In this document: positions 5,222 through 57,936 of the stretch, in pieces | Position numbering within the stretch: the stretch's first letter is position 1 | Layout: each line of letters starts with the position of its first letter | Source: a virus | Lineage: Duplodnaviria > Caudoviricetes | Direction: 5' to 3' (one strand) | IMG/VR virus record: IMGVR_UViG_3300017700_000723 | Coordinates: 466-64,465 of that record | Length of the DNA stretch: 64,000 bases | The notes under the pieces: generated by a model | What the model saw: only the letters and a program-made list of their open reading frames with translations | What the model was told of the DNA's origin: nothing | Database searches by the model: none | Made by a program: the position numbers and the translations under genes

Positions 5222-6187
5222 CTAGGTGATGACACAGATGACTGGGCGCTTGTCCGACGTCGGGTCCGTCCCGATGGCGACGGCGCGCAGCACTTCAACG
5301 AACATTCCCGAGATGCGGGCGCTCGGTGCGCCATTGTGTAGGACCTCGGCCGCCTCCTTCGTGACGCGGGCACTCGGGGCGCCATCGTGCAGGACCTCGG
5401 CCGCCTCCTTCGTGACGCGAGCGACCGAGGCTGGCGCTGTGCCTGTCTCCGTGAACGCGAGCGTGACGGCCTGCCAGAACTTGCGCGTGCTGGCTGCTGG
5501 CTCCTGAGCTACCGCGGCCTGGGTCGAGGTGACGGTCTTGTACTGCGCGAACAGGTTGCCGATCGCGTACTGCCGCGTCGACGCTACGTTCGCGACACCG
5601 GTGTAGCCAGTGTTGGCGGAGAGCACGGCTGGCTGGGCGTCACCGTCCTGGGCGCTGTCGACGAAGATCGACAGAAGCAGCGTGTTCGCGTCGCCCGTGG
5701 TCAGGTTGACCGAGGGCTGGTCCAGAGCGGTGTCGCTGTCGCTGTTGTAGTAACTGACAGCCGCTGTGGCGTCGAGCTCGCCGTCGAACGGCGCCGTGTA
5801 GTTCCCTATGCCAGCGACCGCGAAGCCGATGCAGCTGATCTGGTTCGCGAAGCCCGCCGACATGGTCGTGGACCAGGCTAGGTTCGTCACCTGCGCAAAG
5901 GCCGGCGCTACGAACATCTGCAGGTGCCAGTTCGTGATCGGGAACGAGCCGCCGACGTTGTACTCGATCAGCTCGTCGAACACCTCCGTGAAGGTCAGCC
6001 CCGTGGCGGTCACGCCGCTGATGCGGGTTACGTTCGTGGCCGTGTCCGTGCGCGCCGTGGCGAAGATCAGGACGACGGTCTGGCCCTCGCCGTTCGTGCT
6101 GATCGTGCCGGCCTGGCTGTTTGATATGCCAGCGCCAGAGAAGTTCTGGCCCCCGCCGGAGTGGATACTGTTGATCGAGACGGTCAT
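5222..6187 (-). CDS. tail fibre/receptor-binding-associated protein
   Basis: 321 aa, Thr/Ala-rich beta-type sequence at end of tail module. Confidence 0.6.
   Translation of the reverse strand: MTVSINSIHSGGGQNFSGAGISNSQAGTISTNGEGQTVVLIFATARTDTATNVTRISGVTATGLTFTEVFDELIEYNVGGSFPITNWHLQMFVAPAFAQVTNLAWSTTMSAGFANQISCIGFAVAGIGNYTAPFDGELDATAAVSYYNSDSDTALDQPSVNLTTGDANTLLLSIFVDSAQDGDAQPAVLSANTGYTGVANVASTRQYAIGNLFAQYKTVTSTQAAVAQEPAASTRKFWQAVTLAFTETGTAPASVARVTKEAAEVLHDGAPSARVTKEAAEVLHNGAPSARISGMFVEVLRAVAIGTDPTSDKRPVICVIT
5315..5416. repeat. 2 x 51-nt in-frame tandem repeat (ARVTKEAAEVLH[D/N]GAPS)
   Basis: direct repeat at 5315-5365 and 5366-5416. Confidence 0.9.
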
Positions 6188-6200
6188 GTGCCCAAGTGCT

Positions 6201-7211
6201 CTATGCTACGAGTTCGTATCCCAGCTGCATGCCGTTGACCTCTGCGCCTGTCCACGCCGCGGCGGTGTCCGGGTTGGTCTCGTAGATTTGTTCGAACAGC
6301 TGATATGAGGCGCCGAGGTTTCGGGTGGTGCCGTTCGCTGTGGTTGCCCCGCTCTTCAAGTTGGTACGTGCAGTCCGTGTGGCGGCGTTGTCCTTGCGGG
6401 CGACGAGGATCGGAACAACGGCCTTGACACTGGCCGGTGTGCTCGACAGGTTGGCCATGTCGAAGAGGTCCTTCTGCGCGGCCGTCGACGAGGAGTTGTA
6501 GGTCGTGTCGTCGTCCATAGTCGCGTCGTCGACGTTCGCATAGTTGTCCGCGCCAGTCGAGCGCGTCCAGTCCTTGGTCGCCGTGTCGGCGGTCGGGACC
6601 AGTGTCTCGATGCGCATCTCCCCGAGCTTCGTCGCCGCGTCGGTTATATACATGTCGTCGTACTGCGCCGTGGCGGTCCAGCCCTCGCTGTTGAAGGTGT
6701 ACGCGTCAATCGACGAGGCGCCCGTGTTGGTGGACCCGAGGTTCGCCACCAGAGCCCCGTTGCAGTAAACGTTCACTGACCCGCCGGAGCCGGTCGCGCG
6801 CACGAGCTCGAACTCGATGTAGGCCCAAGTGTTGGCAACAATGACGCCCGCCGCACTCTCACAAATCTTGTTCGTCGTGAAGTCGGTGCGTCCGAAGATC
6901 AGCTTGCCAGCATTGTCCGCGCCGAGCTTGCAGACGACCGTACCGGCGCCACCTCCATTGTAAAGGGAGATGATGGACTTACCGGTCGACGCGTTCGCCA
7001 GGTTGGAGACTAGGAAGGCAAACCCGAATGAGAGATTGTTGTACGAGCCGCCGAGAGCTCGGATCAGGCTGGCGGCGTTGAAGTCTCCGCGCCAGCACTG
7101 CCCGCTGAAGCGCCCGGTCTGCAGCGAGGCAGTCGGGACGTTGTAGCCCCGGCGCTGCATCTGCGTCGTGCTGGCGTAGAGGTCAAAGCCTTCTGTGAAG
7201 ATGATAGCCAT
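6201..7211 (-). CDS. virion structural protein (lectin/LamG-like tail protein)
   Basis: 336 aa; DGF-type N-terminus and WAYIEF/YDDMY beta-sandwich pattern; tail module. Confidence 0.6.
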   Translation of the reverse strand: MAIIFTEGFDLYASTTQMQRRGYNVPTASLQTGRFSGQCWRGDFNAASLIRALGGSYNNLSFGFAFLVSNLANASTGKSIISLYNGGGAGTVVCKLGADNAGKLIFGRTDFTTNKICESAAGVIVANTWAYIEFELVRATGSGGSVNVYCNGALVANLGSTNTGASSIDAYTFNSEGWTATAQYDDMYITDAATKLGEMRIETLVPTADTATKDWTRSTGADNYANVDDATMDDDTTYNSSSTAAQKDLFDMANLSSTPASVKAVVPILVARKDNAATRTARTNLKSGATTANGTTRNLGASYQLFEQIYETNPDTAAAWTGAEVNGMQLGYELVA

Positions 7212-48793: not shown

Positions 48794-48960
48794 AGAAGCG
48801 CGAGGGCGACAACGCCAAGGCGAAGTGGGCCAGGAAGGCCCGTGACGCCTTCAAGCAGATCAGGGACCTCTGCGCCAGCTACTACAAGGAACCGAAGCCG
48901 AACACGCAGACGCTGATCCAGGATATCTGGCGCACGGCCAACTTCGCGGAGATCGACTGA
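48790..48960 (+). CDS. hypothetical protein (56 aa)
   Basis: GTGA overlap with polA stop; 3' part of track ORF 48724..48960. Confidence 0.5.
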   Translation: MKKREGDNAKAKWARKARDAFKQIRDLCASYYKEPKPNTQTLIQDIWRTANFAEID

Positions 48961-49430
48961 TGGTGAAGTTCCTCACCTACTACGGCGAGATGCTCCTCGC
49001 GCCCGTCCTGGGCCTCGTGCTCCTGACTGGCAACCTGTTCCCGTGGGACGAGGTGCCGGGGTTGGTGCTGGGCGGCATCGTGTCGTGGACGCTGGCCGAG
49101 TACGCCGTTCATCGTTGGGTCCTGCACGACCTCGCGCCGACGCAGCATCGTCTCCACCACGCCAGGCCGAACGACCCGATCGAGCACATCTTCTGGGGCA
49201 TCTGGCTCTGCTTCGCCGTCGTCTACCTACTCGCGGGAGGAGCGTTCACCTGCGGGGTCCTCCTGGCATATGCCTGGTACCTCTACGTCCACCACTGCGC
49301 CCACTTCCGTCCGGGCTGGCTGCCCTACTTACTGGTCAAGCATCACGAGGGGCACCACATCTACGCGACCCGCAACTTCGGGGTGAGCACGACCCTCTGG
49401 GACCATGTCTTCGGGAGCAAGCTGCGATGA
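48960..49430 (+). CDS. fatty acid hydroxylase/sterol desaturase family membrane enzyme
   Basis: EY.VHRWVLH, H..HH, H...H, HH..HH and NFGVSTTLWDHVFGS His boxes. Confidence 0.85.
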   Translation: MVKFLTYYGEMLLAPVLGLVLLTGNLFPWDEVPGLVLGGIVSWTLAEYAVHRWVLHDLAPTQHRLHHARPNDPIEHIFWGIWLCFAVVYLLAGGAFTCGVLLAYAWYLYVHHCAHFRPGWLPYLLVKHHEGHHIYATRNFGVSTTLWDHVFGSKLR

Positions 49431-53789: not shown

Positions 53790-53965
53790 CCCACGTCGCC
53801 AGGATGGACCACAACTACTTCGAGCAGCTGCGTCGTGCTGGAGAGATGCAGCAGAAGATGCACGAGCGCCTACTGGCACTCGGGTTCGTGTGGGACGGGA
53901 TGGACGGCTACTCGACCGACGACCCGGCCCTGTGGGAGCAGCACAAAAAGGAGATCGGGCTATGA
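53786..53965 (+). CDS. hypothetical protein (59 aa)
   Basis: read manually; GTGA and ATGA overlaps at both ends. Confidence 0.55.
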   Translation: MTHVARMDHNYFEQLRRAGEMQQKMHERLLALGFVWDGMDGYSTDDPALWEQHKKEIGL

Positions 53966-54348
53966 GCCAGCGAGGAAGGGAGGCGCGGGAGTATGTCGAG
54001 CGGTGCCTCGAGGAGTTCAAAGTCCCGCGGCCGTACGCGTTCGGCGTCACGGGCGGCTGCCACCAGGACGTCCGGTTCACCTACCTCGGCCGAGCCTGCC
54101 GGTACGTCTTCCCCGGCTCACCGAGCGACAGGCGCGCGCTCAAGAACTCGCGCACGGAGCTCAGGAAAGTCCTGCGCTCCACCGAGGGGAAAGCTCTTCC
54201 AGCAGGACCTCAGGGCGGACCCGTTCTGGATGCTGGTTGCGTGCTGCCTCGTCAACTTAACTACGTGGGAGGTAGCACGGGTCGCCTTCGCGAAGCTGAG
54301 GACGCGTTACGCCGATGCAAGTGGCCTCGCCACAGCAAGGCCGTCTAG
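53962..54348 (+). CDS. hypothetical protein (HicA-like N-terminal half)
   Basis: AAGGAG RBS; GCH..V.F......V.P.SPSD.RAL.N pattern; C-terminal third looks non-coding and overlaps glycosylase. Confidence 0.55.
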   Translation: MSQRGREAREYVERCLEEFKVPRPYAFGVTGGCHQDVRFTYLGRACRYVFPGSPSDRRALKNSRTELRKVLRSTEGKALPAGPQGGPVLDAGCVLPRQLNYVGGSTGRLREAEDALRRCKWPRHSKAV

Positions 54349-54736
54349 GCTCGTCCCGACGCTCAGGCCTCTCGGCCTCTCCAACATCAGGTCTGCTCGT
54401 TTGGTCGCGATGGCCAAGGCTTGGACCACGCAAGTCCCCCTCACTGCCTCGGACGTCCTAAGGCTACCTGGATGCGGCAAGTACGCGTCTGACAGCTGGG
54501 CGATCTTCATCGACGGCAGGACCGACGTGTACCCGACCGACGGCAAGTTGACGTGGTACATGGAGAGGGCTCATGCTCGAGAAGCAGCTGGCGATGGTGG
54601 AGCGGTTCCACCAGACGGTGACGGGTCTGCCGATACCGCAGTATCCTACGCGCCTGAGCCCGGAGCGCAAGGCGAAGGGCCTCGAGGCCCTGCGCGAGGA
54701 GGTAAACGAGTTCGAGGATGCCGCCAACGCGGCTGA
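54188..54736 (+). CDS. HhH-GPD DNA glycosylase, MBD4-like (5' end uncertain; first ATG 54230)
   Basis: DPFWMLVACCLVN, LRPLGL..IR, HhH LPGCGKYASDS, PTDGKL catalytic Asp as in MBD4 PEDHKL. Confidence 0.8.
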   Translation, partial: GKLFQQDLRADPFWMLVACCLVNLTTWEVARVAFAKLRTRYADASGLATARPSRLVPTLRPLGLSNIRSARLVAMAKAWTTQVPLTASDVLRLPGCGKYASDSWAIFIDGRTDVYPTDGKLTWYMERAHAREAAGDGGAVPPDGDGSADTAVSYAPEPGAQGEGPRGPARGGKRVRGCRQRG

Positions 54737-55590: not shown

Positions 55591-56427
55591 TTGCAGAACT
55601 TCAACACAGCCTACCACGATCTGCTGGGCGACCTCGTCTCCAGTCCGTTCTCCGAGGTGAACGAGCGGACCGGCGTCGAGATCAAGATGATCCCTGGCGG
55701 CTACTCGTTCAAGATCGACCTGTCTGACCAGACGCTGCCTGTCACAGGCTCCCGCAAGTTGTTCCCGCATGTGGCCGCGGCGGAGATCGCGTGGTTCATC
55801 CGCGGGGACCAGGACACAGTGTTCCTCAACCAGCACGGCGTGAAGATTTGGGACAAGTTCGTCGAGGCGGACGGTAAGACGGTCGAGGCGGCGTACGGCT
55901 ATCGGTGGCGCTACGCCTTCGACCGTGACCAGCTCTGGTGTGCGATCGAGGCGTTGCGGAAGAACAGCACGGACCGCCGTATCTGGGTACAGGCCTGGGA
56001 CCCCCGCGTAGACGGCCTCGGCGCCGCCGGCCAGAAGAACGTGCCCTGTCCCGTCGGCTTCACCCTGTCGCTGGTCGACGGCCTCCTCCACAGCTCCCTG
56101 TTCATCCGCAGCTCGGACGTGTTCGTCGGCCTGCCGTACGACGTCATGGGCCACGCGATGCTCATGGCGGTCGTCGCTGCGTCGGTCGGAGCCATGGGCC
56201 TCGGCTCGATGCACGTCACGCTGGCCCACGCGCACCTATACAAGTCGCACTACGACATGGTGGACGCCGCCCTGTCGCAGACGATGTACCCGCAGGGGCC
56301 GAAGCTCTACGCCTGGACGCGGGACGACGTCCTCCGCGACCCGGACGGTTTCGTCTGGACGTACCGCAAGGCCGCGCAGGACGTCGCGTGGCCATCCTAC
56401 TCACCCAAGCCGGAGTTGATCCTTTGA
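55591..56427 (+). CDS. thymidylate synthase homolog, predicted dCMP methylase/hydroxymethylase
   Basis: TS fold motifs (EIAWFI.G, IWD, catalytic PC, RSSD, HLY) with Asp184 at the TS Asn177 position. Confidence 0.88.
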   Translation: MQNFNTAYHDLLGDLVSSPFSEVNERTGVEIKMIPGGYSFKIDLSDQTLPVTGSRKLFPHVAAAEIAWFIRGDQDTVFLNQHGVKIWDKFVEADGKTVEAAYGYRWRYAFDRDQLWCAIEALRKNSTDRRIWVQAWDPRVDGLGAAGQKNVPCPVGFTLSLVDGLLHSSLFIRSSDVFVGLPYDVMGHAMLMAVVAASVGAMGLGSMHVTLAHAHLYKSHYDMVDAALSQTMYPQGPKLYAWTRDDVLRDPDGFVWTYRKAAQDVAWPSYSPKPELIL

Positions 56428-57076: not shown

Positions 57077-57435
57077 ACCCCTGGGAGATGCACGCTTATG
57101 TCTTCACGTACCACGGCGATGACCCGCGTCCGTTCTTCGAAAGGACCTTCCCGGCCAGCTGCCTCGCCCAGGCCCAAGACTGGATCGGCCGCCAAAGGCA
57201 CCGAGGCTTCATCTGCGTCGACTGCCTCCCCCGCTTCTATTACCGCTAAGTTCAAGCCGAAGGACCGGGTCGAGACGACGCCCGCCTTCTCAGAGCTGTT
57301 CGACGGCGGTGCCCACTGGACCGGCACGGTCCTGAGCGCGAAGTCGTTCGACAAGTTCGTACAGTACATGGTGCAGACGGAGCAGGCTGGTCTCTGTCGC
57401 ATCGGCGAGAAGTGGCTCAAGAAGGAGACCAAGCG

Positions 57436-57936
57436 ATGAGACTGCTGATGGCGGTGAGCAAGGACGGCTACGTGGCCCGGCGGAAGGACGACGACATGTC
57501 CTGGACCGGGCCCTTCGACAAGGCGGTGTTTCGCCTGCTCAGCCACGTGGGCGGTGAGCTGGGGTGCGGATCGAGGACGTACGACCTGCTCCCACACAGG
57601 CTCAAGGGCCGCAACATCCACCGGCTCAGCCAGCAACCCGTGCCGCCGCAGGCCGCCACACCCGCCTCGCCACTCGTGCAGAACCTGTCCTGGTTCGCCG
57701 AAACGTACACGGGCGGCTGGCTCATCGGCGGTCTGCACATCGCGGTCAACGCCCTGCAGATGGACCTCGTCGACGAGGCGTTCATCTGCCAGTCCGACCG
57801 CAGCTGCTTCCCGGGCGACGACGGCGAGCTCTGCACCCTCGGGCTGCTCATCAACGACCGTGGGACGGACTGGGAGCGGACCGACGAGATAAAGGTCGGC
57901 GACACGACCGTCAACGTATGGAAGCGCCGACGATGA
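57436..57936 (+). CDS. dihydrofolate reductase-like protein
   Basis: LMAVSKDGYVA, MSWTGPFDKAVFR, GSRTY, LKGRN, WLIGG DHFR-like motifs. Confidence 0.75.
   Translation: MRLLMAVSKDGYVARRKDDDMSWTGPFDKAVFRLLSHVGGELGCGSRTYDLLPHRLKGRNIHRLSQQPVPPQAATPASPLVQNLSWFAETYTGGWLIGGLHIAVNALQMDLVDEAFICQSDRSCFPGDDGELCTLGLLINDRGTDWERTDEIKVGDTTVNVWKRRR

Follow-up and report, generated by a model that had tools for sequence, protein, structure and literature searches.

A predicted MBD4-type DNA glycosylase in the putative 5-methylcytosine nucleotide cassette of an Xp12-like virus

Does a phage that builds its DNA with 5-methylcytosine (5mC) also carry an enzyme that repairs the T:G mismatches arising when this base deaminates? 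The question is raised by a gene of the uncultured virus recorded in IMG/VR as IMGVR_UViG_3300017700_000723. The DNA analysed here (the window) comprises 64,000 nucleotides, positions 466 to 64,465 of that record, and thus almost the whole of the contig, which is 64,465 bp long and has direct terminal repeats; the genome is complete. The gene lies in an open reading frame (ORF) of 247 codons that the initial annotation had read as an MBD4-like T:G mismatch glycosylase (Table 1). The observation of an MBD4-type gene is confirmed, and its ORF is intact. We propose that its product is an MBD4-type glycosylase that lowers the C-to-T load by T:G (and U:G) repair in a 5mC phage; we assign this reading a probability of roughly 0.75, and its substrates, the 5mC content of the genome and the enzymes that would finish the repair are parts of it that we infer.

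The translation of positions 54188-54590 (+ strand), in the frame of this ORF, is the peptide for which a segment-by-segment match to the MBD4 catalytic domain had been claimed from the letters alone, and database comparison bore this claim out. When the domain was searched with phmmer against PDB sequences, the 15 best matches were all MBD4 glycosylase-domain chains (E 2.9e-10 to 3.9e-08), residues 3-131 of the query aligned with residues 3-131 of the chain, and the printed alignment contained all four of the MBD4 segments, namely QETLFHDPWKLLIATIFLN, LKPLGLYDLRA, LHGIGKYGNDSYRIF and VHPEDHKLNKY. The similarity reaches upstream to an APPRG motif at 54176, the MBD4 counterpart of which is PPRS. 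From metagenomes we collected 93 homologues (45-69% identity), 67 of which were aligned (alignment A1) as the basis of a family profile and a structural model. The A1 profile matched MBD4 over the whole domain (E 1.7e-23); its matches to Mig.MthI (E 4.5e-12), EndoIII (9e-12) and MutY (~1e-5) spanned only the first ~110 positions, and the MBD4 match is better than those to Mig.MthI and EndoIII by about eleven orders of magnitude. The resemblance to MBD4 is far greater than chance could account for.

The structural comparison that had been suggested as a check pointed in the same direction. The AlphaFold2 model built on A1 had a mean predicted local distance difference test score (pLDDT) of 97.6, and in a Foldseek search of the PDB its top 16 matches were all MBD4 catalytic domains, with template modelling (TM) scores of 0.86-0.89 normalised either way; Mig followed, with TM scores of 0.72 (TMq) and 0.48 (TMt). 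The MBD4 catalytic domain is the only close solved relative of the phage glycosylase. The fold is a compact HhH-GPD fold without a 4Fe-4S domain, and the domain ends ~15 residues past the catalytic Asp. General family models recognize it poorly: the Pfam HhH-GPD model gave 19.8 bits against a gathering score of 26.2, weak and yet the sole Pfam match in the 247-aa ORF, and PHROGs has no family matching the glycosylase. Pfam did not find a methyl-CpG-binding domain in the 247-aa ORF, and because this domain is absent, the protein is an MBD4-type catalytic domain only and not an MBD4 orthologue. The initial reading is corrected in this respect and also at the Arg468 finger, which is Leu here.

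The labels 'endonuclease III' and 'ENDO3c' in the records of Donnerlittchen, AXL1 and JGI, together with a weak match to the NCBIfam nth model, imply instead an EndoIII/MutY-type enzyme for oxidized pyrimidines or A:8-oxoG, and the initial annotation had named closer similarity to EndoIII or MutY as the outcome that would speak against its claim. The opposite was found. The nth match (TIGR01083) reached 26.3 bits against a cut-off of 211.7, the profile match to EndoIII had an E-value 1e11 times worse than that for MBD4 and covered only part of the domain, and the TM score was 0.88 for MBD4 against at most 0.72 for the others. The Fe-S motif CX6CX2CX5C is absent from the glycosylase domain in A1. 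Moreover, the Tyr of the hairpin G-x-G-K-Y sits at what we take to be the catalytic Lys position (Lys120) of bifunctional EndoIII, and because Tyr replaces this Lys, the enzyme is predicted to be monofunctional. An EndoIII/MutY-type activity is accordingly most improbable, and the protein is predicted to be a monofunctional, cluster-free HhH-GPD DNA glycosylase of MBD4 type.

The residues on which recognition and catalysis depend in MBD4 are for the most part present in the phage domain (Table 1). Their roles were taken from human MBD4-DNA structures (PMC3479182), with the numbering derived from the HhH hairpin (534-541) and the loops 466-471 and 503-511. The catalytic Asp is invariant, both in A1 (67/67) and in the family representatives that cover it (141/141). 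Gln449, which reads N3/O2 of the flipped T or U and the replacement of which (Q449A) inactivates MBD4 (PMC3479182), is Gln in 115 of the 117 family representatives covering this position, and the Tyr540 position is Tyr in 140 of 146; the Lys562 equivalent is likewise nearly invariant among the 146. The Arg468 finger, which is described as key for locking the flipped base in MBD4 (PMC3479182), varies between members of the viral family, the 146 representatives having Arg in 62, Gln in 24, Leu in 22 and Lys in 19 cases. Two Cys of the phage protein (in VAC, 54242-54244, and in PGCG, 54473-54475) show little or no variation in the phage clade, whereas MBD4 has Thr and Ile at these sites.

On this basis, a thymine or uracil opposite guanine would be flipped into a pocket formed by the equivalents of Gln449, Tyr540 and Lys562, the gap in the helix would be filled by Leu in place of Arg468, and the glycosidic bond would be cut by the invariant Asp. 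The abasic site would then be handled by an AP endonuclease, a polymerase and a ligase, and refilling from a phage-made 5-methyl-dCTP pool would restore 5mC:G. In an all-5mC genome, each deamination would give a T:G pair that is invisible to uracil glycosylase, so that the enzyme would lower the C-to-T mutation load. The second-best family lends support to this substrate choice, as Mig.MthI is also a T/U:G glycosylase. Modified-base phages often destroy unmodified DNA, and the pocket is unlike that of MBD4 at Gly471 (Trp) and His561 (Gly); it might therefore be imagined that the enzyme attacks ordinary cytosine or another normal base in unmodified DNA, either that of the host or phage DNA with mistakenly incorporated dC, for host shut-off or quality control. 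However, the equivalents of Gln449 and Tyr540, which face the 2,4-dioxo side of T or U, are kept, cytosine in the pocket of MBD4 acts as an inhibitor (PMC3479182), and the loss of such an attack would not predict the C>T excess that is described below for lineages without the glycosylase. We consider this alternative very unlikely.

T:G repair by the phage enzyme presupposes a 5mC genome, and the setting of the gene suggests one. The nucleotide-metabolism region shares 64-76% DNA identity with Xanthomonas phage Xp12, Stenotrophomonas phage AXL1 and other Mesyanzhinovviridae/Bradleyvirinae, and Xp12 is described as the classic phage in which cytosine is fully replaced by 5mC (PMC7653180; PMC9206674). 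Downstream of the glycosylase, the window encodes a MazG-type protein and a ThyA homologue 50% identical to the Xp12 enzyme, in which the motif GLPYD puts Asp at the E. coli Asn177 position. A preprint treats Asp at this position as a predictor of dCMP use and reports that 5mdCMP is produced in vivo by the ThyA of Xp12 and by five homologues from metagenomes (bioRxiv 10.1101/2024.12.05.627091). A ThyA homologue with Asn177 changed to Asp next to MazG identifies a putative Xp12-type 5mC nucleotide cassette in the window. The association recurs, with GLPYD in every ThyA homologue readable across the motif beside glycosylase homologues in 22 further loci; MazG and a GLPYD-type ThyA adjoin the glycosylase in 20 of 22 distinct loci (homologues of at least 51% identity), with ThyX instead in one and neither in one. 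Neither a PF00383 (dCMP-deaminase family) match nor a DNA C5-methylase was found in the complete 64.5-kb genome; because it has no gene of either kind, any 5mC must come from the nucleotide pool. Judging from these genes, the virus very probably builds its DNA with 5mC in place of cytosine.

That such a genome would need the repair, as was initially claimed, is too strong a statement, although the link to a 5mC genome itself is upheld by the ThyA homologue. In the phage collection, 13 records (RefSeq duplicates included) contain the glycosylase and all belong to the Xp12 group; the carriers are Xp12, YB23, FMYAK-P1, MET13-T1, Ep029, DoCa6, AXL1 and Donnerlittchen. A close ThyA homologue is present in 74 phage records, only 13 of which have the glycosylase, and because the other 61 are without it, the gene is an accessory of 5mC-type phages and not a requirement. 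GLPYD is also found in glycosylase-less PaMx74, Bosa and RDJL Phi 1, and PaMx74 is described as fully 5mC-substituted (bioRxiv 10.1101/2024.12.05.627091). In Bosa, DLP4, Xoo-sp2, Elanor, QDWS359 and PaMx74, the small gene that precedes the glycosylase in the cassette is kept and is directly followed by MazG.

Such phages offer a natural version of the knockout whose mutation spectrum the initial annotation had proposed to examine, and the predicted C>T excess was found in the lineages without the gene. We counted C>T plus G>A against T>C plus A>G as outgroup-polarised parsimony differences in a gap-free 5.5-kb cassette alignment of 13 phages and, for Bosa and AXL1, in a further 38 kb; GC-rich sequence biases such counts, but to the same extent whether or not a branch has the gene. 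Bosa and DLP4, which share 99% identity, both cleanly lack the glycosylase; their sister group is AXL1/DoCa6, at 91-92% identity, and the Xp12 group, at 86-88%, served as outgroup, the gene being present in both of these. DLP4 and AXL1 infect the same host, S. maltophilia D1585. The cassette counts were 87 versus 2 (43:1) for Bosa/DLP4, compared with 6 versus 8 for AXL1/DoCa6 (Fisher p 5e-7) and 26 versus 28 for the Xp12-group stem. Over the other 38 kb, the counts were 732 versus 62 (12:1) for Bosa and 215 versus 106 for AXL1, whereas transversions were alike (627 and 564) and the C>T effect was seen in every 5-kb bin. The per-cytosine C>T rate was 3.6% for Bosa and 1.2% for AXL1, with a weak sequence context, and the GC content is 65.3% in Bosa, 67.4% in AXL1 and 68.3% in Xp12. 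The remaining glycosylase-less branches gave cassette counts of 53 versus 14 (PaMx74), 73 versus 26 (Elanor), 45 versus 16 (Xoo-sp2) and 46 versus 14 (QDWS359), and the glycosylase-bearing ones 38 versus 50 (Donnerlittchen; p 7e-6 for PaMx74 versus Donnerlittchen) and 23 versus 18 (Bosavirus core stem). The C>T:T>C ratio was thus 2.8:1 or higher on branches without the gene (2.8-3.8 for Elanor, Xoo-sp2, QDWS359 and PaMx74) and 0.75-2.0 on branches with it, a difference of the kind that removal of T from T:G by the enzyme should leave behind. In the structural-gene region, the excess on the Bosa branch was also strand-asymmetric (Bosa 1-41000 versus L050 and L051), with 465 C>T and 267 G>A on the + strand.

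The need for repair might also arise from enzymes rather than from spontaneous decay. An enzyme of MBD4 type could have as its main task the countering of enzymatic deamination, by a host defence or by a 5mC-selective deaminase of the phage, or the removal of U or 5-hydroxymethyluracil (5hmU) opposite G. According to one report, MBD4 also excises U and 5hmU when these stand opposite G (PMC3458566); certain other members of the family carry a fused 5-hydroxymethyldeoxyuridine (5-hmdU) DNA kinase, and a dCMP-deaminase-family gene, which adjoins ThyA in the Xp12-like relatives, is present in the same cassette in most relatives. This deaminase group is described as preferring 5mC (bioRxiv 10.1101/2024.12.05.627091), and the title of that preprint, in which methylated-site sequencing is named as the application, suggests that it may reach 5mC in DNA. 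However, the genome of the window has no such gene (no PF00383), and self-inflicted deamination is therefore not the reason for the glycosylase there; the phage's own deaminase was rejected as the source of the repair need in this virus. In addition, the weak context of the C>T excess in the glycosylase-less lineages is more in keeping with spontaneous decay than with an enzyme that is sequence-selective. This explanation, which overlaps biochemically with the repair of 5mC deamination, seems to us unlikely as the main task.

The wider distribution points to a mainly viral family. With an E-value of 1e-10 or better, it comprised 1,960 clusters of a library clustered at 50% identity, whereas a pattern scan of 185,579 species genomes of cellular organisms yielded two loci, and in a hidden Markov model (HMM) search of 400 genomes of one bacterial class only the seed genome matched. 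Several members are fused to other enzymes: P0117 to a C5 cytosine DNA methylase, P0140 to MazG and a dATP/dGTP diphosphohydrolase N-terminal domain (Pfam dGTP_diPhyd_N), and P0150 and P0157 to the 5-hmdU DNA kinase. The fused proteins that cover the sites keep the Asp, Gln and Tyr (Phe in P0157), and P0117 and P0140 are shortened at one end. Judging by the kinase fusions, the domain may have a role in thymidine-hypermodifying phages as well. A viral contig of 273 kb contains both an S-adenosylhomocysteine hydrolase gene and, ~1.2 kb downstream of it, a distant homologue of the glycosylase (34% identity); a single ORF separates the two (L032:3382-4710 and 5953-6414).

How the domain is translated in the virus of the window is less straightforward. 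The first ~61 and the last ~52 codons of the ORF overlie neighbouring genes in other frames, the latter the MazG gene, and the GC content at third codon positions (GC3) marks three successive coding frames, those of a small protein (53962-~54187; 0.91), the glycosylase (~54188-54572; 0.80) and MazG (from 54573). The glycosylase frame is +1 relative to that of the small protein, the ORF of which has no stop before 54348 and overlaps the glycosylase ORF by 355 nt, and coding switches between the two at ~54176-54190 without a stop or start codon. No ATG, GTG or TTG occurs in the glycosylase frame between 53993 and 54230. A start at ATG 54230, the only ATG within the domain, was rejected because it would delete the essential Gln449 equivalent. 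The same +1 junction is present in a phage recovered in two data sets (L008/L010) that shares 74% DNA identity with the window, and the synonymous differences between the two follow the glycosylase frame from APPRG on and the small-protein frame before it. A sequencing-error frameshift at a GGGG run was likewise rejected, as this independent sequence has the same junction and frame-consistent synonymous differences.

The frame switch, the loss of Gln from a product started at 54230 and the shared junction could together mean that the gene is not made as a normal protein in this virus, either because it is decaying or because it is made only as a +1 frameshift fusion with the small protein. Several observations argue otherwise. 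The ORF of 247 codons is intact and has all key residues and a GC3 of 0.80; ATG 53993 is preceded, at a distance of 9 nt, by a GGGAGG sequence made of A-ending codons, which are atypical of this genome; and the sequence ahead of the conserved LFQ contains no recognised slippery motif. In a further locus (L009) there is a similar long overlap but in a -1 relation, an arrangement more readily explained by overlapping genes than by a frameshift site conserved throughout, and a single conserved +1 frameshift site is not supported for this reason; in L007 the overlap is with a different upstream gene. With a stop frequency of 0.023 per codon in this genome, it is nothing out of the ordinary for a +1 frame to stay open over 61 codons. 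We therefore regard the absence of a normal protein as quite unlikely, and favour initiation at 53993, which would give the glycosylase an overprinted Arg/Ser-rich N-terminal tail.

Table 1. Positions in the window of the glycosylase gene, its predicted functional residues and the neighbouring cassette genes.
Feature	Position	Strand	Basis or remark
Whole ORF holding the glycosylase, 247 aa	53993..54736	+	Only ATG/GTG/TTG-initiated ORF with the complete catalytic domain
Predicted MBD4-type HhH-GPD glycosylase domain (APPRG...KLTWY)	54176..54580	+	PDB sequence search, AlphaFold2, Foldseek, alignment A1; 135 residues
Gln, equivalent of MBD4 Gln449	54200-54202	+	Residue 11 of the domain counted from 54170; phmmer/profile alignment
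Intercalating loop N-L-T-T-W, equivalent of MBD4 Asn467-Gly471	54254..54268	+	Alignments; loop role from PMC3479182
Leu at the MBD4 Arg468 finger position	54257-54259	+	
Trp at the MBD4 Gly471 (pocket) position	54266-54268	+	
PLGL loop, equivalent of the MBD4 Leu506 region (backbone contact to orphan G)		+	
HhH Gly-rich hairpin P-G-C-G-K-Y-A-S	54470..54493	+	
Tyr, equivalent of MBD4 Tyr540 (reads O2)	54482-54484	+	
D-G-K: Asp, equivalent of catalytic Asp560; Lys, equivalent of Lys562 (pocket)	54539..54547; Asp 54539-54541, Lys 54545-54547	+	
Gly at the MBD4 His561 (pocket) position	54542-54544	+	
Small protein core, ~75 aa, alpha-beta-beta-beta-alpha	53962..54187	+	GC3 0.91; homologues upstream of the glycosylase in many loci; AlphaFold2 pLDDT 83
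MazG-type NTP pyrophosphohydrolase fused to a dNMP-kinase-like domain, 338 aa	54573..55589	+	Pfam PRA-PH E 2.8e-12; PHROG 38514, 671, 139
ThyA homologue, predicted dCMP C5-methyltransferase	55591..56427	+	Pfam Thymidylat_synt E 1e-44; GLPYD motif ~56113-56154
Weak DHFR-like ORF	57412-57936		After several ORFs without assignment downstream of the ThyA homologue

Several points weigh against T:G repair in a 5mC genome as the function of the gene. The activity is a prediction for every member of the viral family, and the 5mC content of this genome is likewise predicted, from the ThyA homologue. The substitutions of Arg468 by Leu, Gly471 by Trp and His561 by Gly mean that the specificity could differ from that of MBD4. 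The glycosylase is dispensable, as the 61 of 74 ThyA-type records without it demonstrate, and the glycosylase-less Xoo-sp2, QDWS359 and PaMx74 are still at 67-68% GC. The comparison of natural knockouts is correlative; it draws on three or four independent glycosylase-less lineages, in which other gene differences are uncontrolled. Finally, the domain has no start codon of its own in the window, and its expression would depend either on a frameshift or on the ATG that lies within another gene, 183 nt upstream.

The neighbouring genes place the glycosylase within a cassette rather than beside a dedicated partner. The small protein has one invariant His and an S-P-S-D motif (alignment A2), and copies are found at L005:1156-1377, L009:4939-5151, L015:5708-5929, L023:5708-5929 and L037:1889-2110; a homologue search with it returned only itself, and Foldseek gave only weak dsRBD-like matches in the PDB, none of them significant. 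It was considered as an analogue of the methyl-CpG-binding domain or as an obligate partner of the glycosylase, and neither role is supported by these weak matches or by its presence in glycosylase-less PaMx74, Bosa and DLP4; as phages lacking the glycosylase have it too, it is a component of the cassette and no partner specific to the enzyme. Instead of the MazG fusion, Xp12 has only a 257-aa form annotated as MazG/HAD. In the closest relatives of the window, HNH-type endonuclease ORFs lie between the glycosylase and MazG (L008:861-1412 and L007:1968-2537), and an HNH-like gene upstream of the glycosylase in one of them (L007:948-1655) seems to be frameshifted. Elsewhere in the window, an ORF between the DNA polymerase A and helicase genes (48960-49430, 156 aa) matches the fatty-acid hydroxylase (di-iron oxygenase) family PF04116 (E 5.9e-14), a type of domain that is unusual in a phage replication module.

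Among known systems, the catalytic domain of MBD4/MED1 (human ~439-574; PDB 3IHO, 4E9E-H, 4EVV, 6VJW and 1NGN) is the closest to the phage enzyme. Both are cluster-free HhH-GPD domains that align over their whole length (25-30% identity; TM 0.86-0.89) and share the catalytic Asp, Gln449, Tyr540, Lys562, the PLGL loop and an N-terminal PPR..(L/V)Q, and a like task, the removal of T derived from 5mC opposite G, is predicted. In contrast to MBD4, the phage enzyme has neither a methyl-CpG-binding domain nor a linker, differs at Arg468, Gly471 and His561, and has the two clade-specific Cys; it is encoded in a cassette that would produce 5mC at the nucleotide level, and it would act genome-wide on C and not only at CpG. 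Mig.MthI and the archaeal thermostable T:G glycosylases (PDB 1KEA) resemble it in being HhH-GPD enzymes for T or U opposite G, and Mig.MthI is natively linked to a 5mC methylase. Unlike the phage protein, however, Mig.MthI has ~220 aa and a C-terminal 4Fe-4S domain, and the similarity is confined to roughly the first 110 residues of the phage domain. The Vsr/Dcm system of E. coli very-short-patch repair likewise couples T:G repair genetically to a 5mC-making enzyme, for which the C5-methylase fusion of P0117 offers a comparison, but Vsr is an unrelated endonuclease that nicks 5' of T in a fixed context and not a glycosylase.

The nearest named counterparts are QNN97216.1 of Xp12 and gp65 of AXL1 ('hypothetical protein' and 'ENDO3c domain-containing protein'), orthologs with 55% identity in the same cassette slot; Xp12 has been shown to carry 5mC, and AXL1 is suspected to do so. 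Their genes differ from that of the window in having their own start codon, which overlaps the stop codon of the small gene in Xp12-type genomes, and a 28-aa N-terminal extension; the window gene is without both and overlaps its neighbours on both sides. In the AXL1 paper, gp65 is presented only as ENDO3c/EndoIII-like, shared with Xp12 and with a putative catalytic Asp141, and is not linked to MBD4 or T:G repair (PMC9206674), and our literature searches returned no publication that connects a glycosylase of MBD4 type, or one for T:G, with Xp12-like phages.

A more far-reaching proposal is that stand-alone MBD4-type glycosylases form a large, mainly viral family that guards genomes with C5-modified cytosine and has a measurable effect on phage mutation spectra, that the family has a direct common origin with the eukaryotic MBD4 domain, by transfer from virus to eukaryote or the reverse, and that the enzyme here may be made via a conserved +1 frame switch. 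We offer this proposal as a tentative one that is less likely than not and more doubtful than the function proposed for the single gene.

In summary, the phage gene most likely encodes a viral version of a known kind of enzyme, a predicted T:G (and U:G) glycosylase that would limit C>T decay. Phages that put 5mC in place of C evade restriction, yet the product of 5mC deamination is a normal base and so is hidden from uracil glycosylase; a phage T:G glycosylase would be the matching fix, with parallels in Vsr-Dcm of bacteria and in MBD4 and TDG of animals. The comparative data suggest that the gene shifts the natural mutation spectrum of phages three-fold or more, a read-out that is rare for a viral repair gene. 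The labels 'endonuclease III', 'ENDO3c' and 'hypothetical protein' should be replaced. These enzymes of 135 residues are candidate tools for methylation sequencing and for the removal of deamination artefacts, and the family may bear on the origin of the eukaryotic MBD4 catalytic domain.

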